Below are positions 13,501 to 24,476 of a DNA stretch of 25,269 bases, in pieces (within the stretch, counting starts at the first letter, position 1; every line of letters starts with the position of its first letter). The stretch spans positions 1-25,269 of IMG/VR virus record IMGVR_UViG_3300032116_001212. One strand, written 5' to 3'. The position numbers were made by a program, and so were the translations under genes. The stretch comes from a virus (Duplodnaviria > Caudoviricetes). The notes under the pieces were generated by a model. The model ran no database searches. It was not told the DNA's origin and saw only the letters and a list, made by a program, of their open reading frames with translations.

Positions 13501-16418
13501 TAAGCGAGCGCCTGCCTCGTGACGCAAGTCTTCTAGCCACTACGCCTGACACGTTGGCTGCAATAAAAAACAAAGGTAAAGAAGCTAAAGACTTCGATGC
13601 TAAGTTAAAGGACCCAAAAGCAGGACCAGAAGAGCAGCTTACTATTATTGGGCAGCTTATAAAAATACGTAGCTGGGATGATGCCGTAGATGTGATGTCT
13701 GACGTTTATAACGGTACAACCTCGCAGTTTCGTAACCCGCTTCTAAAGTCTTTGACCACGCGACAGCTAACTGAGCTCAAAGCGGCCAAGGCAATGATTG
13801 GAGGCGATGGTAAACCTGTTCTAGATACAACACTGCGTATCGCCGAGGACATGAATGGTGCTAAGTCCAAGATGTTGGATGAAACTGCTGACATGGCTAA
13901 AGTCTGGCATGAATGGCAGCGCGCTAATACAGGTAAGTCCCGCACTTTAAATCGGCTTATCCATCTCTCTACTATTAACCAGATTGATCCGTCGGTGGAT
14001 ACCCGGTCAGCTACGCTTACGCAGATGTATGAAGCGTTAGGTCCAGACGGCAAGAAACTGTACAACGATATTCGTGACTTTTACAAAGCCCGGTTTGATA
14101 AGTACAAACAGCTTCTGCTTGACCGTGTATCGCAGACAGAAGCAGACGAAGCGACTAAAGCGCAGATCATTGCAACGCTGGAAAAAGACTTTGAGAAATT
14201 ACCACAGCCTTACTTTCCGTTAGTCCGCGAAGGTAAATACTGGGTGCGCATAGGCAATCCAAAAAGCCCGAACATGGAGTACTACATGTTTGAGGACCCA
14301 CGTGAGCGTAACTTCTTTGTACGTCAACGTGCTAAAGAGCTAGGCACTACTGTAGAAGCGCTAAAGGCTGACGAAAGTAATATCTTTGCTACTGGCGACG
14401 ACTTTAAAGTTGCTGTTGATGAGGGCATGCGCTCGTCCAAGACATTAAAAGATATTCTTGAGTTGGTAGATAACGCCAATATGGTGGATAAGGCGGCGTT
14501 AAAAGATGAGATACATCAGTTGTATTTCTCTACACTGCCTGAACAGAACTTCCGCAAGCACTTTATCCATCGTAAAGGCACGGCGGGTTTCCGCTCAGAT
14601 GCGCTGCGTAACTTTGCTAAGTCCAGCTTTCACACCTCGGTGCAGTTAGCCAAGATTGAGTACGGTCAAAAACTACGAAACTCAGTAGTTAGAGCTTGGG
14701 ATGCTACAAAAGGAATGCCTCAGCGGGAAGAATTGTATGCGCCGTTAATTACTGAAATGAAAGACCGCGTAGAGAACGTGCTGTCACCAGACCGCACTGA
14801 TGCTATGGCTACTAAGTTTGCTAATGTGCTTGGTAGCGCCAGTTTCTTCTACTACATGAGTGCACCTGCATCCGCGCTGACTAACTTAACGGGTCTGTAC
14901 GTTTTTGGTATGCCGGTTCTTAACGGTGAGTTTGGAGGGAAAGCAAACTTGGCACTCGCCAAGAACATGAACATATTTAAAGCAGTGGGCACAACCGATA
15001 AAGACGGTAAGTTTACGTTCCCTACATTGCTTTCAAAGCTGACTGGACATCGCCGGGATGCGTATATGGAAGCCCTGCGCCGTGGAAAAATTGATACGAC
15101 GCTAACTTACGATACGCTCCAGCTTTCGCGCACTCCATCTGAACAGTATGACGGTGGTTCCACAACCACAAAAATTATGAACGCCATGGGGTACCTATTC
15201 CACCATAGCGAAAAACTTAACCGCGAAGTCATGTTTATGACCGCGTACGATTTAGCGTACGACCGTGCTACCAAAGATGGACGCGACGTAAAGACTGCAC
15301 AGGAAGAAGCGTTGAACGAAGCCTCCCGGTTGACTGACGAGGCAATGTTCGATTACTCAGAGTTTAATAAACCTCGTTACTTCCGAGGCAATACAGCACG
15401 GGTGATTTTGCAGTTCAAAGCGTTTGCCCAACAGACTACGTTCTACTTAGTTAAAAACTTTAGGGCTATGTTTGGAGAGCAGCCCCCCGGAGTACGGCGC
15501 ACTGCTGCTACTAAGTTTATTGGTACGCTAGGTATGACCGCCATGTTTGCAGGTGCTATGGGTCTGCCGTTAGTATCCGTTATCTCATACGCAATGTCGC
15601 TTTTTTCTGAAGATGAGGAAGACCCAGAACGTAGAAACCCTAAGCTGCGGTTTAAAAAGTTTTTAACTGATACATTCGGTCTCGACTTAGGTACGATTTT
15701 AGAACGCGGTCCTGTGTCATGGGCAACCGATGTAGACTTCCATGGCCGTACAAAGCTAGACCAGTTATGGTTCCGCGAGATGAAGGCTGGTAAGTCTGAA
15801 CCTGAAACACTGCGAGAGTTTATTATTAATATGCTAGGCCCCAGCGTTGGAATGGGGATAAACGTTGCCGAAGCAATGCGCCGTATAAATAATGGCGATA
15901 CGCAACGGGGTATGGAGTTGCTGCTTCCCGCAGGTTTACGTGGGTTTGCAGTAGCGTTCCGGCAACAAGGGGTTCCGTTTGTTGATAAGGGTGAGGGAGT
16001 AAAGACTCTTAAAGGGGATGTAATAGCTGCTCCAGAGGCTTTAACAGAAGCAAACCGTATAGCTACTATGGCAGGATTTGGCATTACCCGTGTAGCGTCA
16101 AAGCAGGAAAAGACAGCGCAGTTATATGCTGAAATTCAAAAACGAGAAGAACAACGTAGAGCAGCTTTAGATTTGTATAAAGATTTGCTGGATGGGTTTA
16201 CGTTTAGCAAACGAGACGCCGCTATGCAAGCAGTTCTAAAGTTCAATAAAGCAAACCCATACGACGTTATAGATGGAGATGCTATTACTTCAACTATCGA
16301 CCGAGAAGCTGAAGCGCGAGGCAAGTCTATAGACGGGTTACGTGTGAAAGATAAGCTACGTCCGTTAATCATGAAGATGATGCCAGCTAGTGCGCCCATG
16401 AAAAAAGCCCCCGACTAA
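10581..16418 (+). CDS. large internal virion/ejection protein (1945 aa) with zincin-like HExxH domain and PLxRFG-like C-terminal region
   Basis: TVLHEALHA (13101-13115) with downstream EFVSYG; PYFPLVREGKY (about 14208-14240); hydrophobic Gly/Ala segments near both ends; last gene of the structural operon, the position of T7 gp16. Confidence 0.75.
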   Translation: MAFDPTTARPVEVTRGFAFDPSTATLETETPRVTGFDPSTATPFIDARTKTAEPTPEEQSVFRQVADVPLQLQKGLVTGVRLISDAFGADSTTSKNLRSVEDYLAGLMSAQSKQDSREQARIMKEAEDKGILDQVVAGVKALAVAPVDTVVNALGTSGPAIVAGLTATVAGAPAAAILGTTAAVGSVMGAGTIKGAIYETVTEELVKAGLKPAEAEARAIKAQEYFGENMGMITTGAGLGTLEAITGAQPAIARMIASKITRKGATEIAEDVAEQAAKGYFGAATKAAAKEAAPEFLQGAQEQLAKNLALQEEGFDVPTMRGVVAQGTLEAAAGAGLGATTGVAQVAMERRADTQEQREIDALQAEIEKETGQVVAGAEPTIEEGVIDVTEPSPAIDGTVEPSAAMPVGGVEAATAGVETPLASGLATAEQLTGAPITGAAVQPTPLTQPLPTLEQAQAVVDSQPNKDQLQIIEAPDGGFVVAQRAPVVEPTVVAPIAPAPVVGEAAPVETGGVAPEAIQPAVQIAPAEALEAAPVPETVELVAEEVAQEEEAFARAAEEVITPTEEPSVAEAIETVQAKEERPQETAATVAAIAEQAEAPVRKRAPGAGRKKSEVAKTTEERKAQAGDLIQDARDIEGRAKAIQKLSLGFAPEQFAKRGVSAEDAQTAYEEAESARKEDLWNNKMYLYIASVDPTRRDTKAGRVAREAVATFTPQEQAQYKKLYADYKAEQRGAPLKSTSIYLSDDADPKFNSATTAQQALRRIMNTGKPFEKLLAQRLLNAVKGVQFVVIRSDTKLPAEINKAFKETTQGVYSEARKTIYVRDASFGDVNGINNTTVLHEALHAATTLRLDYALALDAQGELDTAPALQAFAQIMTKTMQRAELVYRVAKAEGRSTPYLDALYKVNAFTDVREFVSYGLTDNMMQQFLATQVPGMKMSMYSRFVEAIRKLFGFDANSQSAFQDLVVTTDALLSERLPRDASLLATTPDTLAAIKNKGKEAKDFDAKLKDPKAGPEEQLTIIGQLIKIRSWDDAVDVMSDVYNGTTSQFRNPLLKSLTTRQLTELKAAKAMIGGDGKPVLDTTLRIAEDMNGAKSKMLDETADMAKVWHEWQRANTGKSRTLNRLIHLSTINQIDPSVDTRSATLTQMYEALGPDGKKLYNDIRDFYKARFDKYKQLLLDRVSQTEADEATKAQIIATLEKDFEKLPQPYFPLVREGKYWVRIGNPKSPNMEYYMFEDPRERNFFVRQRAKELGTTVEALKADESNIFATGDDFKVAVDEGMRSSKTLKDILELVDNANMVDKAALKDEIHQLYFSTLPEQNFRKHFIHRKGTAGFRSDALRNFAKSSFHTSVQLAKIEYGQKLRNSVVRAWDATKGMPQREELYAPLITEMKDRVENVLSPDRTDAMATKFANVLGSASFFYYMSAPASALTNLTGLYVFGMPVLNGEFGGKANLALAKNMNIFKAVGTTDKDGKFTFPTLLSKLTGHRRDAYMEALRRGKIDTTLTYDTLQLSRTPSEQYDGGSTTTKIMNAMGYLFHHSEKLNREVMFMTAYDLAYDRATKDGRDVKTAQEEALNEASRLTDEAMFDYSEFNKPRYFRGNTARVILQFKAFAQQTTFYLVKNFRAMFGEQPPGVRRTAATKFIGTLGMTAMFAGAMGLPLVSVISYAMSLFSEDEEDPERRNPKLRFKKFLTDTFGLDLGTILERGPVSWATDVDFHGRTKLDQLWFREMKAGKSEPETLREFIINMLGPSVGMGINVAEAMRRINNGDTQRGMELLLPAGLRGFAVAFRQQGVPFVDKGEGVKTLKGDVIAAPEALTEANRIATMAGFGITRVASKQEKTAQLYAEIQKREEQRRAALDLYKDLLDGFTFSKRDAAMQAVLKFNKANPYDVIDGDAITSTIDREAEARGKSIDGLRVKDKLRPLIMKMMPASAPMKKAPD
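10587..10703 (+). repeat. three in-frame FDP[T/S]TA peptide repeats
   Basis: FDPTTA (10587-10604), FDPSTA (10635-10652) and FDPSTA (10686-10703). Synonymous codons differ between copies. Confidence 0.85.
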
Positions 16419-16426
16419 GCGGGGGC
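16401..16426 (-). terminator. Rho-independent terminator for - strand transcription
   Basis: On the - strand: GCCCCCG-CTTAGT-CGGGGGC followed by TTTTTT (7-bp GC stem plus U6). It overlaps the last codons and stop of the convergent 1945-aa gene. Confidence 0.85.
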
Positions 16427-16471
16427 AAAGGAGAGCGACGGCAGAAGGAGCTAACTTCGGAGGGTGCCGTC
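16401..16471 (-). ncRNA. candidate small RNA with anti-Shine-Dalgarno (CUCC) motifs
   Basis: 7-bp stem GACGGCA/TGCCGTC (16465-16471 with 16437-16443) encloses CCCTCCGAAGTTAGCTCCTTC, then GCTCTCCTTT, then the terminator. A TATACT -10-like hexamer lies at 16483-16478; the -35 match is poor. Confidence 0.5.
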
Positions 16472-16485
16472 CGGCGCAGTATAAC

Positions 16486-16680
16486 CTAGACCCTCCACAC
16501 ACGCACCCCCTGCACGCCCTCCTGTATGACAACGCGTGTTACGATTTTAAACCTAAGCCTTTTCATAACACGCGTAATATCCTGCACTGCCGTAGCGGGG
16601 TTTAAACACGGGATAAAGAACGATGCCCCCGGCTTAAACGCTTGCCAGTTAATTTGGTAGCTGACCTTCTCCACCTGCAT
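16486..16680 (-). CDS. small basic hypothetical protein (64 aa)
   Basis: Start placed at ATG 16680, which has GGAG 7 nt upstream. W..FKPGASFFIP...GVRVWRV pattern; overlaps the primase 3' end. Confidence 0.7.
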   Translation of the reverse strand: MQVEKVSYQINWQAFKPGASFFIPCLNPATAVQDITRVMKRLRFKIVTRVVIQEGVQGVRVWRV

Positions 16681-19540
16681 CAGGTTTCTCCACTGGAACA
16701 AAAGCCTCAACGTTCAAGTACTCGGGGTTGGTGCAGTCAAACTCCAACACATACACGGGTGCCGTTACCATCTTCATCCCAGTGCCGAGTCGGCGTGTGA
16801 CCCGCCCCGTAAACACACCCTTGAGCTTCATTTCCCGTAGCACATCGCTATACCCAATCTGTTTCTTAACGCAGTCATCCTTAAACGCACTGGACTGGAT
16901 GTATAGTTTTTTGGTGTCTGGCTCATATCGTGCAACCAACGCACCTCGGGGTTCCCGTAACGGTGCAGGGCTCAGGTTAGTGCGGGAGTCGGCTTCGCCG
17001 TTGACAACTAAGCACTGGTCCACGTGGCGGTTGAGAAAGTCACCCAACACAGTCGAGGCGTCATCCATAGGGGCACTGCCTTCTTTGCGTAGTTCCTTAA
17101 TCAGGTCTGTTGCCCATTTGTAAATAACCTTCATGTCGTAGTCAATCAAGCCCAGATTGCGGGCAATCAAACCACCGGTAATGTTACAAGCAACAACCGC
17201 AGACCAGAACCGCTCCCGCTGAGTCAGCTTCAGCTCTTTGTCGATCTTGGCTTGTATAGCCCGCATAGTCTGGACTGCTTCTTCTTTGTTGCCTACAAGC
17301 CATTGTGCATATATACCACCCGCCACGCCGTAGTTCTCTCGCAACTGATGGTCAAAGTACTGCTTACCTTCTGCCACGTCGATAGCATTTGAGTAACCAA
17401 TCTGGTACTCCATCAAGCGCATCATCTCCCCGTCCGGCGTAGCCTTCAAAGATGCCAGCTTTTGCGCAAAGTGTGCGTTGGCTGAGCACAAAGAAATGGT
17501 CTGCCAGAATGTCGTGTTAAGTCGGAGTTCGTTGGTCGCTGCCATAGACCGGTCCTTCCAGCGCCCTTGAGACATACCGTAGGACATATCAGAGAACTCT
17601 TCGGCCACCATGTTCGTTATCTCGTCCATCGTGAACGGCAGGTTATTCATCACCCCCAGCTTCAGCATCTTGGCGTTAACCGTGTCTTTTGGGATACACA
17701 TCAGGTTGTCTGGGTGCCCCCATACGCTGTTGCATACAGCCAGCGTTGTTGACTTACCTGAGCCTGAGCCACGGAAGACCAAGTTAATGATCGCGCCCTT
17801 CTGCCCGGTAAACTTAAGCAACGGCGCACCAAATGCTGACAGCGCAGCAAACGCGTTGGGTTCCAAACCGGGGCGAGTGTAGAGGTTAAAGACTTCTTTC
17901 CATTTTTCTAACGTGCCTGACTCAATGACGTACGGTGCCAGATGCTTCGTCGCTGTGGAAGGGGGGCTGTAGTAAATGCTATCCGCCGTAATCTCTCTAT
18001 CACCCACAATAAACTTACTGTCTCCATCAGCCCAACCAAATTGTGTTCTCATAATATCTGCCTTTGTGGTTATTTGTATTTCCTTTGCACACCTAAGCAA
18101 AAAGTTAATTACTTCATCCATCTGCGTACCCCGAGCCAACACGCCCTTGGCACCTAACAGTTTTTTTGGTTCGTCCTTACCGGTCAGTGCGCTTGCTGCT
18201 ATCGTAAAATCCTTAACGCCGTCCTTGGGTAAGTGCAGACGTATCCGCATTACTTCGCCTACTTCTGGGTCGATCATGCGCTGCATTACGTATATGTCGT
18301 GCTCGTAAATCAACTTTGCTTCTTCCTCATCCTTCATCGGCTCCCGATATACGCCGCCACTTGCACCACGCTTATATGGGAATGGGTACGTCGGAATGTA
18401 AGTGGGCGCAATCGCTACGCTGCCTTCATCCTCTTCTTCGTCTTCCGGTTGTTCAGGTTCGACCAAGTATCCTTCCTCAGTTGCTTCAGACAAAGCTATC
18501 GTCCGACCTAAAGCGATAGGAGAAGCAAATGCGCCTTTATGTTTGCAATTATCACAGCCGCCGGGGTTCCAACGCGCAAACGTCGTGCAGTAGTGGGGGG
18601 CTCCGGTATCTCGCAAGTTTTGCGCTTTCGCATCCACTTCCGCTGGGTCGTAATGCGGGTGGTTTTTAGACAACTTGTGAACTGCCGAGTACGAGTCCTC
18701 ACAGAATGCCGCGATAGACATAGCTGAGCGCCACAGGTTGTAATCTATGGACTCTTGGTTCTGATAACAATGTATTAACTGAGCGCAGCCTTCATCGCCC
18801 ATCGTCATAATCTTTTTAAACGACGACGTGCGGTTCTTCATCAACGCCAAAGTAAGTGCCGACGGTGGCCCTCTGCGTCTGGGTATGTACTGCTCGTCCT
18901 CGGCGCTTACACCAAGTATTTCTTTAATCTTTTCGTATTCTACGGGTGGAGCAACTGACAACACCTCGACGGGCTTAGGTGTTTCATCCTTGAAATTTAA
19001 TGTCCCCGGTACGCGTAATATCCGAGCCGACTCGAAGACGGAAGGGTCCACAATCAAGCCGTGAGTGACGCAAAGTTTAGATAGCCGCTTAGTAAGTGGT
19101 TGCCAGCGTGCTTTGTCTATGGTTTCAGTAAGCAGCCAGTACAAATGCCAGCCACGTCCTGAGTTAACGACTGTAGGTTTGGGCAGTCCTATCGTGGAAC
19201 AGAACTCTCGTAGTGCTTGTAATCCGGTGGCTTGGTCTACGTAGCCTTCAATCCGGTTATTCTTTTTAGGGTTAGGCTTTCCTTTATCTTCGCCGCAGTC
19301 AATATCCATCCAGAGGGCACGGAAATACGTAGCATTCTCCTGCTTACGATTCGCGTTGGTTGCAAACTTAGCACAACCAAAATAAACATCGCGCCCACCC
19401 TCCAGATACTGCTTGATAAACTCGTCTGCCTCTTCTCTAGTCTGTACAAGCTCCTGCCACGCTACGTCGTTCTTAATTCCTACAATGCAATACCAACCCT
19501 CATCGGGCAGCACAGCATCCATTAAGTCGAAGTTAGCCAT
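16649..19540 (-). CDS. primase-helicase fusion: N-terminal AEP/RepB-like primase, Cys cluster, DUF927 and P-loop helicase
   Basis: WMDIDCG (DxD), VNSGRGWHLYW and RILRVPGT.NFK are AEP motifs. Cys cluster C...HYC...GGCDNCKH; QFGW (DUF927-like); Walker A GSGSGKST; Walker B FTMDE. Confidence 0.88.
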   Translation of the reverse strand: MANFDLMDAVLPDEGWYCIVGIKNDVAWQELVQTREEADEFIKQYLEGGRDVYFGCAKFATNANRKQENATYFRALWMDIDCGEDKGKPNPKKNNRIEGYVDQATGLQALREFCSTIGLPKPTVVNSGRGWHLYWLLTETIDKARWQPLTKRLSKLCVTHGLIVDPSVFESARILRVPGTLNFKDETPKPVEVLSVAPPVEYEKIKEILGVSAEDEQYIPRRRGPPSALTLALMKNRTSSFKKIMTMGDEGCAQLIHCYQNQESIDYNLWRSAMSIAAFCEDSYSAVHKLSKNHPHYDPAEVDAKAQNLRDTGAPHYCTTFARWNPGGCDNCKHKGAFASPIALGRTIALSEATEEGYLVEPEQPEDEEEDEGSVAIAPTYIPTYPFPYKRGASGGVYREPMKDEEEAKLIYEHDIYVMQRMIDPEVGEVMRIRLHLPKDGVKDFTIAASALTGKDEPKKLLGAKGVLARGTQMDEVINFLLRCAKEIQITTKADIMRTQFGWADGDSKFIVGDREITADSIYYSPPSTATKHLAPYVIESGTLEKWKEVFNLYTRPGLEPNAFAALSAFGAPLLKFTGQKGAIINLVFRGSGSGKSTTLAVCNSVWGHPDNLMCIPKDTVNAKMLKLGVMNNLPFTMDEITNMVAEEFSDMSYGMSQGRWKDRSMAATNELRLNTTFWQTISLCSANAHFAQKLASLKATPDGEMMRLMEYQIGYSNAIDVAEGKQYFDHQLRENYGVAGGIYAQWLVGNKEEAVQTMRAIQAKIDKELKLTQRERFWSAVVACNITGGLIARNLGLIDYDMKVIYKWATDLIKELRKEGSAPMDDASTVLGDFLNRHVDQCLVVNGEADSRTNLSPAPLREPRGALVARYEPDTKKLYIQSSAFKDDCVKKQIGYSDVLREMKLKGVFTGRVTRRLGTGMKMVTAPVYVLEFDCTNPEYLNVEAFVPVEKPDAGGEGQLPN

Positions 19541-19559
19541 TTAGTTATTGTATGAGGGT

Positions 19560-19583
19560 AAAAAAGGGGGGATTTCTCCCCCC
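19560..19583 (-). terminator. Rho-independent terminator between the HTH gene and the primase gene
   Basis: On the - strand: GGGGGGA-GAAA-TCCCCCC followed by TTTTTT (7-bp stem, GNRA loop, U6). Confidence 0.8.
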
Positions 19584-20758: not shown

Positions 20759-21156
20759 TTGCTTCTCCTTACAGTAATTTTGTATTTGCTATCGGACATA
20801 AGACCTTTGGGTAACTGGTCTGGGTTTTCTTCAAGGTACTGCTTCATGTTGGTCTGGTGAATACGTTTCTCGAACAAACCATACGCATCATTTTCTTTTA
20901 CAAACTCATACATAGATTCCCAATCATTCGTCCAGAACCGGGTATCAACCCTACGCATGATTGTGCCAACGGGGGTTTTGATGCTATCAGCATTATTCTC
21001 TTTGCACAACTCTAGCATCTCGGTTGATATGAGCGCTAACTGTTCTTCCAACACTTTATATTCTTCATCAAACTTCTTCTGCAACGCATCACGCTTATCG
21101 CGTATTTTTATATACACTTCCGTCAGTTGATCTGCGGGGTAGTCTTTTACATCCAT
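20755..21156 (-). CDS. phage replication-module hypothetical protein (133 aa, N-terminal coiled coil)
   Basis: GAAGGAG RBS; YIKIRD..., SIKT..GT, DWES.YEFV.EN and L.EKRI.Q pattern; ATGA overlap with the downstream gene. Confidence 0.8.
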   Translation of the reverse strand: MDVKDYPADQLTEVYIKIRDKRDALQKKFDEEYKVLEEQLALISTEMLELCKENNADSIKTPVGTIMRRVDTRFWTNDWESMYEFVKENDAYGLFEKRIHQTNMKQYLEENPDQLPKGLMSDSKYKITVRRSK

Positions 21157-21334
21157 CGTAGCTCCTTCAATAAAAATGCGGGGTCACCGAGTGGAAGACC
21201 TATAGGTAAATGAAAAAAGCCTACGGTTTTAGCTCAGCCCCCGCCGCTGTAGTTATTAGCCCCACACACAGCTTGGGTGTCGTCACTTCAACATTTAAAT
21301 CTACTCCCACATCCACCAGCACTCACGTACTGAT
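21157..21334 (-). ncRNA. candidate structured 5' leader or stand-alone ncRNA (~180 nt)
   Basis: This is the longest intergenic gap in the window. It holds several hairpins: CAGTAC-GTGA-GTGCTG, GCTGT...ACAGC, and a long interrupted stem at 21244-21178 followed by ATTTTT. Confidence 0.45.
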
Positions 21335-21340
21335 ACCTGA

Positions 21341-21368
21341 ACTATACACCAACTTTTGACATTGTCAA
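21341..21368 (-). promoter_or_regulatory. sigma70-type promoter overlapped by a 13-bp palindrome
   Basis: On the - strand: TTGACA (21368-21363), 16-nt spacer, TATAGT (21346-21341). The perfect inverted repeat TTGACA-T-TGTCAA lies at 21356-21368. Confidence 0.75.
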
Positions 21369-22924: not shown

Positions 22925-23133
22925 CTAAGTTTTATTTTGTATTGGTGATGGTTGTACTCAAGTAGAGCTTCGTAATCTAAAATAACAGAGGCGGCATCAA
23001 GTGGAGAGTTATAAGGCGCATCCATAATCACGTCCTCATCCACCCAATCAGAACCTAACATTGTTAGCCAGATCATTCGGGCTTCTTCCACGGACATCGT
23101 ATCCATCAGTGGTTGTTGCTTCTCGTCCATCAT
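22912..23133 (-). CDS. hypothetical protein (73 aa, acidic)
   Basis: Fills the gap with short overlaps on both neighbours (ATGA overlap upstream); no motif recognised. Confidence 0.6.
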   Translation of the reverse strand: MMDEKQQPLMDTMSVEEARMIWLTMLGSDWVDEDVIMDAPYNSPLDAASVILDYEALLEYNHHQYKIKLRCKS

Positions 23134-23423: not shown

Positions 23424-23802
23424 GGGATGTTTCCTTCCTCAAATTAAAATACGCATTAGGTGAACGGGGCATACGTTTCATAGAATACTTCAAATATAAA
23501 GCGCCGCAAATAAAATCTCCGTTGCTTACGTACTGCTTAGCATCACGCTCTACTCGGTGTTTCCATCCGTAGCTACTTGTGCTGGTATTAATAGTTTTCC
23601 TACGGTCAAGCGCGTCATAGTTTAGTAACCACTCAACTACGGCTGTAAATCCTTCCGGTGTAACGGGTCCGTGGTCTTTACCCCACCCATCGTCTTGGTT
23701 GTACAAAGCGTATCTATTCTCATACTTAAACCCGTTCGCAGTTAGGTCAGGGTAGTCTTTAAGTACTTTGTTGATATACTCTTGTGCTTCGGCTTCAGTC
23801 AT
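23407..23802 (-). CDS. hypothetical protein (131 aa)
   Basis: Strong AGGAGGAG RBS; TAATG coupling; SSYGWKH..E....YVSNGDFI.GA motif-like segment. Confidence 0.75.
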   Translation of the reverse strand: MTEAEAQEYINKVLKDYPDLTANGFKYENRYALYNQDDGWGKDHGPVTPEGFTAVVEWLLNYDALDRRKTINTSTSSYGWKHRVERDAKQYVSNGDFICGALYLKYSMKRMPRSPNAYFNLRKETSHALHK

Positions 23803-24476
23803 TAGCTCCTCCTATTGTGTGCGCAACTAGTTACAGGACAGAATTTACACAGTGGGCCGGACACCGGGTTCCACACGTTCGTTTTTATCGCTGCTTCTAA
23901 CCGAGTTAACTCCGGCTCCATTGAATTCAGATACGAAGTTTGCATCATGAACTCGTGCTTCTTCTTAACCATCTCGTTGCTAACCACAAACAACAGTGCG
24001 GACTTAATTTCCATAATCTTAGGGTAGTGCGTAAAGACTGCACCCGCCAGTAAGTCTAGCTGTTTGGTGTCGGCATACTTCGCGTTCTTGCTGGTCTTGT
24101 AGTCCACCAGATACGCAGTTTGTTTTTCCTCGTTAACAATGAGCAAGTCAGCTATACCTCTCCACCAGACATCCTTGGCAAAGAAGTCACACGGTGCAAA
24201 CTTACCATCGCGCTTAGCTACACCTAATTTAATCTCGCAATGCTTCTCGCCTTCTATCTTGTTAAGAGCCTGTAAAGTCTCCTGCACAAAGCTAAACTGC
24301 GGCGGTATAGGTGTGCCATCTTTAATATAGTCCTCTGCCGCTTTGTGCAGATCCTTACCATAGACCGTAGCAGTCGAGTCCGCATCTTTGTAGTCCTTAA
24401 GTATGCGCAAATGATGGTACTTCTTCGGGCATTGATCGAAGGTTTTGATGCTACTGTATGACCATGCTGGTATCAT
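23802..24476 (-). CDS. PD-(D/E)XK exonuclease, Cas4/AddB-like
   Basis: WSYSS...F.QCP, G..LH, E.KL, RGIADLL, VDYKT and QL.L.A, plus C-terminal CKFCPVTSC (1+3 Cys arrangement). Start placed at ATG 24476 (ATGA overlap) rather than GTG 24488. Confidence 0.88.
   Translation of the reverse strand: MIPAWSYSSIKTFDQCPKKYHHLRILKDYKDADSTATVYGKDLHKAAEDYIKDGTPIPPQFSFVQETLQALNKIEGEKHCEIKLGVAKRDGKFAPCDFFAKDVWWRGIADLLIVNEEKQTAYLVDYKTSKNAKYADTKQLDLLAGAVFTHYPKIMEIKSALLFVVSNEMVKKKHEFMMQTSYLNSMEPELTRLEAAIKTNVWNPVSGPLCKFCPVTSCAHNRRS

Follow-up and report, generated by a model that had tools for sequence, protein, structure and literature searches.

The 25,269 nucleotides (nt) analysed here, hereafter the window, come from a virus of the Caudoviricetes (IMG/VR record IMGVR_UViG_3300032116_001212) whose record is estimated to be 40% complete. 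Its genes lie in two convergent arms. The + strand carries lysis, tail and ejection genes and ends in a gene of 1945 amino acids (aa), whereas the - strand carries the DNA polymerase, a nuclease, a SNF2 helicase, a 133-aa gene, a 306-aa gene, a helix-turn-helix (HTH) gene, a DUF927 primase and a small gene. Where the arms meet lies a short unit, on the - strand, predicted to specify a small RNA (sRNA). A sequence-only reading of the window had proposed that this RNA acts in trans on the start regions of replication genes. Here, we showed that the layout of the unit is conserved, that the unit is complementary to early ribosome-binding sites (RBSs), that its pairing segment, or seed, co-varies with a target between lineages, and that its matches are biased towards the early arm. 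The unit is a real element that relatives have kept, and it probably works as an anti-RBS small RNA. We favour, with fair though far from complete confidence, the reading that it is the gene of a ~71-nt trans-acting RNA that would occlude the RBSs of several early and replication genes of this phage; translation of these genes is predicted to be blocked as a result. The sequence comparisons point to the 133-aa gene, and not to the primase, as its conserved target.

The -10 hexamer TATACT (16478..16483, - strand, as are all the parts that follow) is sigma70-like and stands 2 nt past the stop of the small gene. The -35 position (16501..16506), 17 nt ahead of it, falls within the last codons of that gene and is poor here (GTGCGT, 2/6). 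Transcription would start some 6-7 nt after the -10, near 16471, and the -10 is therefore not part of the RNA, although the sequence-only reading had included it. The predicted RNA (16401..16471, ~71 nt) has its 5' end set by the -10 and its body by fold prediction and conserved layout. It opens with an outer stem of 7 base pairs (bp) (16437..16471, pairing 16471-16465 with 16443-16437), which appears in both the minimum-free-energy and the centroid folds and is lineage-specific. This stem encloses the 21-nt loop (16464-16444) described in the sequence-only reading; the loop is predicted to fold further, into a seed hairpin (16444..16458) with a 4-bp stem and a 7-nt loop ending in GCUC. This sub-hairpin is the conserved module, and its loop and 3' arm are complementary to the Shine-Dalgarno (SD) sequence and spacer of target genes. 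A second anti-SD motif (16427..16435), which had been counted as a third CUCC motif, is unpaired in the fold, ahead of the terminator; in neighbours the equivalent motif carries matches of 12-13 nt. The one-way intrinsic terminator (16401..16426) consists of a 7-bp GC stem (16426-16407) and six U, and extends over the final codons of the convergent 1945-aa virion gene, whose stop is at 16416-16418. The hexamer, the outer stem, this CUCC motif and the terminator all lie exactly where the sequence-only reading had placed them. On the + strand (16400-16418) the 1945-aa gene enters the terminator hairpin before stopping, in many relatives its TAA lies within the complement of the terminator U tract, and the late (+) strand has no intrinsic terminator at the arm junction.

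The unit is widespread among relatives of this phage. A primase scan found 377 relatives, from which 78 loci were kept in addition to the window. Sixty-six junctions had at least 100 nt behind the small-gene stop, 13 being dropped as too short, and all 66 have the unit behind the small gene, as a CU-rich body followed by a strong GC hairpin with a U tract. Two of the 13 short junctions still show it. A second scan, from a distant member, gave 30 further loci and found the unit in 11 of 14 complete junctions; the three misses (L162-L164) are at 30% identity. The unit is also absent from Pseudomonas phage Rollin, which has no gap at the junction, and from Rhizobium phage RHph_TM27A, whose 64-nt gap holds only a terminator. 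The 66 junctions reduce to 45 distinct unit bodies. The remaining spacer turns over, but the -10, seed hairpin and terminator are kept even where the primases share only ~50% identity. CUCC occurs in 42 of the 45 distinct units and is mostly unpaired in 37 of those 42. The recurring module, in which a 5-bp stem closes a loop of 6-7 nt that ends in GCUC, was found in 18 distinct rows; its stem pairs change yet remain paired, and its first loop bases vary, following the target spacer. Stems related to the outer stem fold in the neighbours when these are folded singly. RNAalifold on 13 aligned neighbours recovered only the terminator, because the outer stem misaligns. Longer units (~85-100 nt) with an extra C-rich hairpin occur in L137, L142-L144, L147 and L154, some with a predicted three-way junction. 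The Rfam 15 covariance models gave nothing at the locus in the window up to E=5, and on 15 relatives they found one tRNA and no match to the unit; by the gathering threshold, the unit belongs to none of these families.

The position of the promoter is conserved as well. TAnnnT stands 2 nt past the small-gene stop in 36 of the 45 distinct units and at a spacing of 16-18 in 20 of 27 clade representatives. The -35 of the relatives reads TTGCGN or TTACGN, and among the clade representatives TTA and TTG account for 18 of the 22 leucine codons at that place, compared with 28% in the primase genes; the window lineage has a valine codon there. Hence, a promoter of its own and an intrinsic terminator apart from the targets, which define trans-encoded sRNAs, are here seen as sequence conservation, with a poor -35 in the window lineage. 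One might instead take the unit for the 3' end of the messenger RNA (mRNA) of primase and small gene, lacking its own promoter, with a seed released by processing or acting from the 3' untranslated region. Transcription of the primase unit meets no earlier terminator than this one, which would end that mRNA anyway, and the poor -35 of the window lineage would fit. Yet this leaves unexplained both the TAnnnT at a fixed non-coding place and the codon bias at the -35, and we find it rather improbable.

Strand polarity bears on a different possibility, that the opposite strand does the work and late virion read-through RNA, through its GGAG repeats, acts as a decoy that attracts a protein which binds SD sequences or belongs to the candidate CsrA-like family. 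The hairpin has no U tract on the late strand in any of the 45 units, so late RNA may run through it, and folding energy favours neither strand (18 vs 18, with 9 ties). But the promoter and the U tract are both on the - strand, and a decoy need not follow single targets base by base. We consider such a decoy highly improbable.

The window lies wholly within a longer record (G001) at 100% identity, which supplied the remaining early arm of this phage. Every match reported by the sequence-only reading was confirmed without mismatch, with lengths of 10 nt (19528-19537 and 21159-21168), 9 nt (23802-23810) and 7 nt (20764-20770). Outside the unit itself, the window has in all only three 10-nt matches to the stem-loop region, two of them at gene starts. 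Chance levels were obtained from 5,000 shuffles in which the CUCC(UU) motifs were held fixed. Under this control, the finding of at least three of 11 window starts with at least 9 nt has p=0.001, and in G001 five of 40 early starts reach 9 nt, against a mean of 0.88 in the shuffles (p=0.009). The best-supported target is the RBS of the 133-aa gene (21159..21168, - strand; 10/10 match; single-site p=0.02). The RBS and start of the 131-aa gene (23797..23815, - strand) is a probable target, with nine Watson-Crick pairs at 23802-23810 (single-site p=0.028). This pairing extends to 14 with three G-U pairs (checked by eye), and the site is second-best of 73 starts when accessibility is counted; the gene family is present in three records only and lies outside the co-variation tests. 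The best site of this phage, 12 nt at G001:12377-12388, is outside the window, at a 96-aa gene two genes upstream of the DNA polymerase.

The primase match covers codons 2-4 (19528..19537, - strand) and is real in this phage: none of the 5,000 shuffles produced it, a 10-mer not derived from the SD has p=0.005 at any of the 11 window starts and p=0.02 at any of the 40 early starts, and the site ranks fourth by accessible energy. It is not conserved, as the comparisons below show. The match at the 306-aa gene (20764..20770, - strand, 7 nt), named in the sequence-only reading as a putative single-stranded DNA-binding protein (SSB) gene, is at chance level (p=0.60), and a Pfam search gave no support for the SSB label.

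If the RNA acts on a gene, the two should change together. We compared the longest Watson-Crick match of each RNA to its own start region (-25 to +15) with its matches to the starts of other phages, for four genes near the junction, in 45 units with automatic starts (40 for the HTH gene). The 133-aa gene gave 7.84 nt for own against 6.60 nt for other starts, a difference reached in 0 of 10,000 permutations. The other genes gave 6.38 vs 6.05 (306-aa gene, p=0.02), 5.28 vs 5.32 (HTH gene, p=0.68) and 5.31 vs 5.18 (primase, p=0.22). When 55 units were collapsed to 27 clades on the primase tree, the difference for the 133-aa gene was 8.56 vs 6.89 (0 of 20,000 permutations), with a match of at least 9 nt in 17 clades; the primase gave 5.17 vs 5.01 (p=0.19). 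The clearest signal of co-variation is given by lineage-specific extensions beyond the SD, which reach 11 nt each in L049, L060 and L076 and 12 nt in L147 and L150, and consist of two 11-nt blocks in L025 and two 8-nt blocks in L067. The 11-nt match of L076 includes a change within the SD flank. The loop also follows the spacer dinucleotide, through a TA-to-AA switch, in 13 of 16 rows. In 18 sister pairs, duplex energy favours the own 133-aa target 13 to 3 (p=0.011). An accessible seed that co-varies with target initiation regions, the other mark of trans-encoded sRNAs, was thus found, the sister-pair test being only suggestive.

Three other candidates did not withstand these comparisons. The primase, held by the sequence-only reading to be the more informative match, shows no co-variation in the 45-unit, sister-pair, held-out or clade tests, so that the expected co-variation of the loop with its 5' codons is not there and the ranking is reversed in favour of the 133-aa RBS. 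Its match reaches 9 nt in only two of 54 units, the window and its 91%-identical neighbour L007, and relatives with the same loop have non-matching primase starts. The match arises because the 5' arm and loop of the conserved hairpin coincide with conserved Ala-Asn-Phe codons, and it may be a lineage-specific extra site rather than a conserved function. The 306-aa gene, in spite of its p=0.02, fails as a target in sister pairs (4 vs 11) and in the held-out set (p=0.96). The HTH gene was rejected on its p=0.68 over 40 units. Hence, the proposal of a trans-acting anti-RBS RNA directed at the replication arm stands on the conserved layout, the co-variation with the 133-aa gene and the bias towards early starts, and loses the primase as its informative match and the 306-aa gene as a target.

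The bias is apparent in whole records. We used 20 of the 24 long records, with genes from a simple purpose-made caller. Among starts bearing GGAG, a match of at least 9 nt was found in 46 of 350 early starts and in 3 of 149 late ones. The three best early matches average 8.87 for the own RNA against 7.90 for permuted RNAs; late starts show no such difference (7.17 vs 7.07, p=0.28, 14 records), and all whole-record p values overstate because the records are related. The genes matched repeatedly are the 133-aa gene (7/20), a family just upstream of the polymerase (7/13), the DUF3310 gene (7/12), an AAA ATPase (3/12, up to 18 nt) and a 285-aa gene (3/14). The 18-nt match is at the AAA-family gene of G003, and matches of 12-13 nt occur at the 285-aa gene in G004, G017 and G013. 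An operator-like palindrome described below was considered as the source of the bias and rejected: the bias persists without the 28 starts that bear it (44/323 early vs 3/148 late) and in the nine records with at most one copy (25/128 early vs 2/69 late).

Early starts share an RBS style within each genome. This leaves room for an explanation without any regulatory RNA, in which the unit is an inverted copy of the favoured RBS, or CU-rich DNA flanking a terminator, kept by descent or recopying. Such an origin would suit the common early style, the many ties among sister pairs and the long matches, e.g. the one of 18 nt, which could stem from recent copying. It is at odds with the persistence of the -10, of a seed hairpin whose stem pairs changed but were kept, and of the terminator across such divergent primases while the remaining spacer turned over, and also with the avoidance of late starts. 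We hold it to be hardly probable.

Naturally, several observations weigh against the regulatory RNA we favour, and it must be interpreted with care. The ~71-nt RNA, its binding and the repression are all predicted. The -35 of the window lineage has two of six consensus positions, and the promoter site fell below the threshold of the consensus scan and was not listed. In this phage, the 133-aa gene is outside the top six sites when accessibility is counted, and plain duplex energy failed to single out the targets. Four starts in the clade test were set by hand on a visible SD, which could inflate its figure (the 45-unit test had no such edits). The sister-pair test, which is phylogenetically independent, is only suggestive: by match length, 11 pairs tie and the other seven split 6 to 1 (p=0.06), and on energy the HTH gene, used as a control, scores 10 to 3 as well (p=0.046). 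A held-out set of eight units gave 8.75 vs 7.95 for the 133-aa gene (p=0.057). The own target is strictly better than those of all other clades in just four of 27 clades, and the TA-to-AA switch maps mostly to one branch. The whole-record comparison uses related records and starts from a simple caller; six of the 20 records have no early start matching at least 9 nt, the own RNA ranks 12th or worse of 20 in five records, and the accessibility model finds early and late starts to be no different in G005 and G007, both complete records. Hence, some lineages have other targets or have lost them. Three RNA runs from the same study gave no contig over 14000-25269, which counts neither way.

A real RNA might instead act mainly against incoming related phages, in superinfection exclusion or a carrier state, or against host mRNAs, the match to own genes then reflecting an RBS code specific to the clade. 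In 23 of the 27 clades the seed matches the start in its own genome no better than those in related phages, several lineages lack a good self target, and the c4 RNA of P1 and P7 confers heteroimmunity through RBS pairing (PMC12197685). But the lineage-specific extensions track the own genome, and no integrase or resolvase was found in the five near-complete records. We consider action on related phages or on host mRNAs unlikely as the main function.

A trans-acting RNA that damps the phage's own early genes might work as follows. The host sigma70 polymerase would make it from the promoter at the 3' end of the small gene, or else it would be freed as the tail of the primase mRNA. The 7-nt hairpin loop would be the first to touch a target and would read GAGC, the 3' half of the SD, and three spacer bases; the weak stem would then open, the whole SD would be covered and initiation would be blocked. 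This reading of the spacer would direct the RNA to the early RBS type of the phage in preference to late or host sites. Likely targets here would be the 96-aa gene (12 nt), the 133-aa gene, the 131-aa gene and the DUF3310 gene. Silencing of the 133-aa gene would probably be polar on the genes downstream, since the stops and starts of its unit overlap behind a near-consensus promoter. A likely role would be to damp early and replication expression as the RNA accumulates in lytic growth. No tyrosine (PF00589) or resolvase-type (PF00239) recombinase was found in five near-complete relatives, in a search that did not extend to plasmid-type lysogeny or antirepressors. For this reason, damping in lytic growth appears the likeliest role and a role in lysogeny is weakened.

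Several known systems come near this arrangement. The c4 RNA of P1 and P7, itself made by the phage, blocks translation of a phage mRNA by pairing, through sequences exposed in loops, in the region of the RBS (PMC12197685), and the specificity of c4 differs among related phages (PMC12197685 and the accessible part of PMC8198154). The unit shares with c4 a predicted, loop-exposed complementarity to the RBS region of phage mRNA. According to PMC12197685 and the same part of PMC8198154, c4 lies with its target in one C1-repressed operon (c4-icd-ant) and serves lysogeny. In contrast, the unit stands alone at the arm junction, has several predicted targets 3-30 kb away, the matched starts lying kilobases upstream, and occurs in phages in which no integrase was found (five near-complete relatives). 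The Cuckoo sRNAs of Alphaproteobacteria (RSs0680/CcsR, ar14) are chromosomal and have 2-4 hairpins, each with CCUCCUCCC in its loop, in the portion of PMC4615179 available to us. They resemble the unit in carrying an anti-SD motif on hairpins with variable stems, and RBS occlusion is proposed for them in that portion. They differ from it in that the single hairpin of the unit reads the 3' half of the SD and the spacer, holds part of the anti-SD in its stem, and has a seed that changes with the phage targets. The Cuckoo motif CCUCCUCCC is absent from the window unit and was not seen by eye in the 45 units. The unit thus falls outside both the c4 and the Cuckoo groups.

Most of the phage sRNAs covered by the review PMC12197685 belong to temperate phages and regulate either in cis or through RNAs of the host. 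VpdS of VP882 and PreS of lambda act in trans, depend on Hfq and work largely on host RNAs, whereas sar, OOP and aQ are cis-antisense RNAs of one phage gene each; all five come from temperate phages (PMC12197685). The unit, predicted from sequence, would resemble them as a short phage RNA that regulates by pairing, some of them on phage mRNAs. In T4, as described in the consulted part of PMC3014915, the RegB protein inactivates early mRNAs at the GGAG of the SD, bases 3' of GGAG sparing the late sites, and RegA represses ~30 initiation regions. These are proteins, and in the unit discrimination would be by RNA pairing; by analogy, RegB is the closest functional parallel. No description of this RNA family was found among titles and abstracts. 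In its available part, PMC10690425 mined the intergenic regions of IMG/VR; the seed 12-mer is absent from six of its supplementary files, the search leaving aside files 1, 2 and 4, where the unit may be an unnamed candidate.

Other features surround the unit and its main target. The small conserved gene after the primase (16486..16680, - strand), which carries the promoter in its 3' end, has 64 aa from the ATG at 16680 (it was listed as 74 aa), weakly matches phrog_7200 and was found in all 24 long records. The 133-aa gene is the first of three (133 aa, 306 aa and HTH) that form a unit with overlapping stops and starts. Its protein has Mu Gam-like matches in Pfam that are all sub-threshold, and PHROGs labels it a minor head protein. 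The unit is preceded by a strong sigma70-type promoter (21341..21368, - strand; 11/12 consensus) with a 13-bp palindrome over the -35, and a like promoter lies within 300 nt in 37 of 45 relatives. The palindrome, TTGACA-W-TGTCAA (21356-21368), is a possible operator for the HTH protein of the unit, and TTGACWnTGT is present in 39 of 45 relatives. Another 13-bp palindrome of the same build, CTAACA(A/T)TGTTAG (23055-23067 in the window), occurs with at most one mismatch in 15-20 copies in the early region of G001, G002, G005, G006, G007, G009 and G013, often centred on a start codon or within genes, and is absent from G003, G004 and G017. One of the copies in G020 lies across the -10 and the first bases of the small RNA. 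These copies look, from their sequence and placement, like an operator array. In this phage, ~180 nt of leader precede the 133-aa gene (window 21200-21335, - strand), compared with a promoter just 50-60 nt from the start in many relatives. This leader includes a G-rich stretch and, near 21215, a run of U, and it might contain an attenuator or another small RNA. An intrinsic terminator (19541-19583, - strand) ends ~20 nt ahead of the start of the primase gene, which lacks an SD in this phage and in most of the relatives displayed; primase expression may therefore depend on read-through. One relative has a tRNA gene upstream of the replication genes (L062:1397-1469). The nearest cultured phage, by primase, is 29% identical at best, and a host search gave only one short contig of a metagenome-assembled genome (MAG) and one distant match. 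The contig, L167 (JAFMIT010000073.1), is 8 kb long, is filed in an Actinomycetota MAG and has a typical unit as well as the primase and the small gene. Since it may be phage DNA that was binned wrongly, we make no host assignment.

The new element, if this is true, would be a stand-alone RNA that acts on many of the early RBSs of its own, probably lytic, phage and co-evolves with them. The early-to-late switch, for which T4 relies on proteins, could then also be made by way of an RNA. The natural seed and target pairs of L025, L049, L060, L076, L147 and L150 can be swapped without phage culture and would double as compact orthogonal repressors. Going further, one might speculate, more tentatively than for anything we favour above, that a large family of integrase-less phages uses a private early RBS code, made of SD and spacer, which one hairpin RNA would read as the counterpart of T4 RegB, shutting the early arm and sparing late and host mRNAs. 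The co-evolving code would then give clade-specific exclusion, and late read-through across the one-way terminator would provide an antisense sponge for the RNA.

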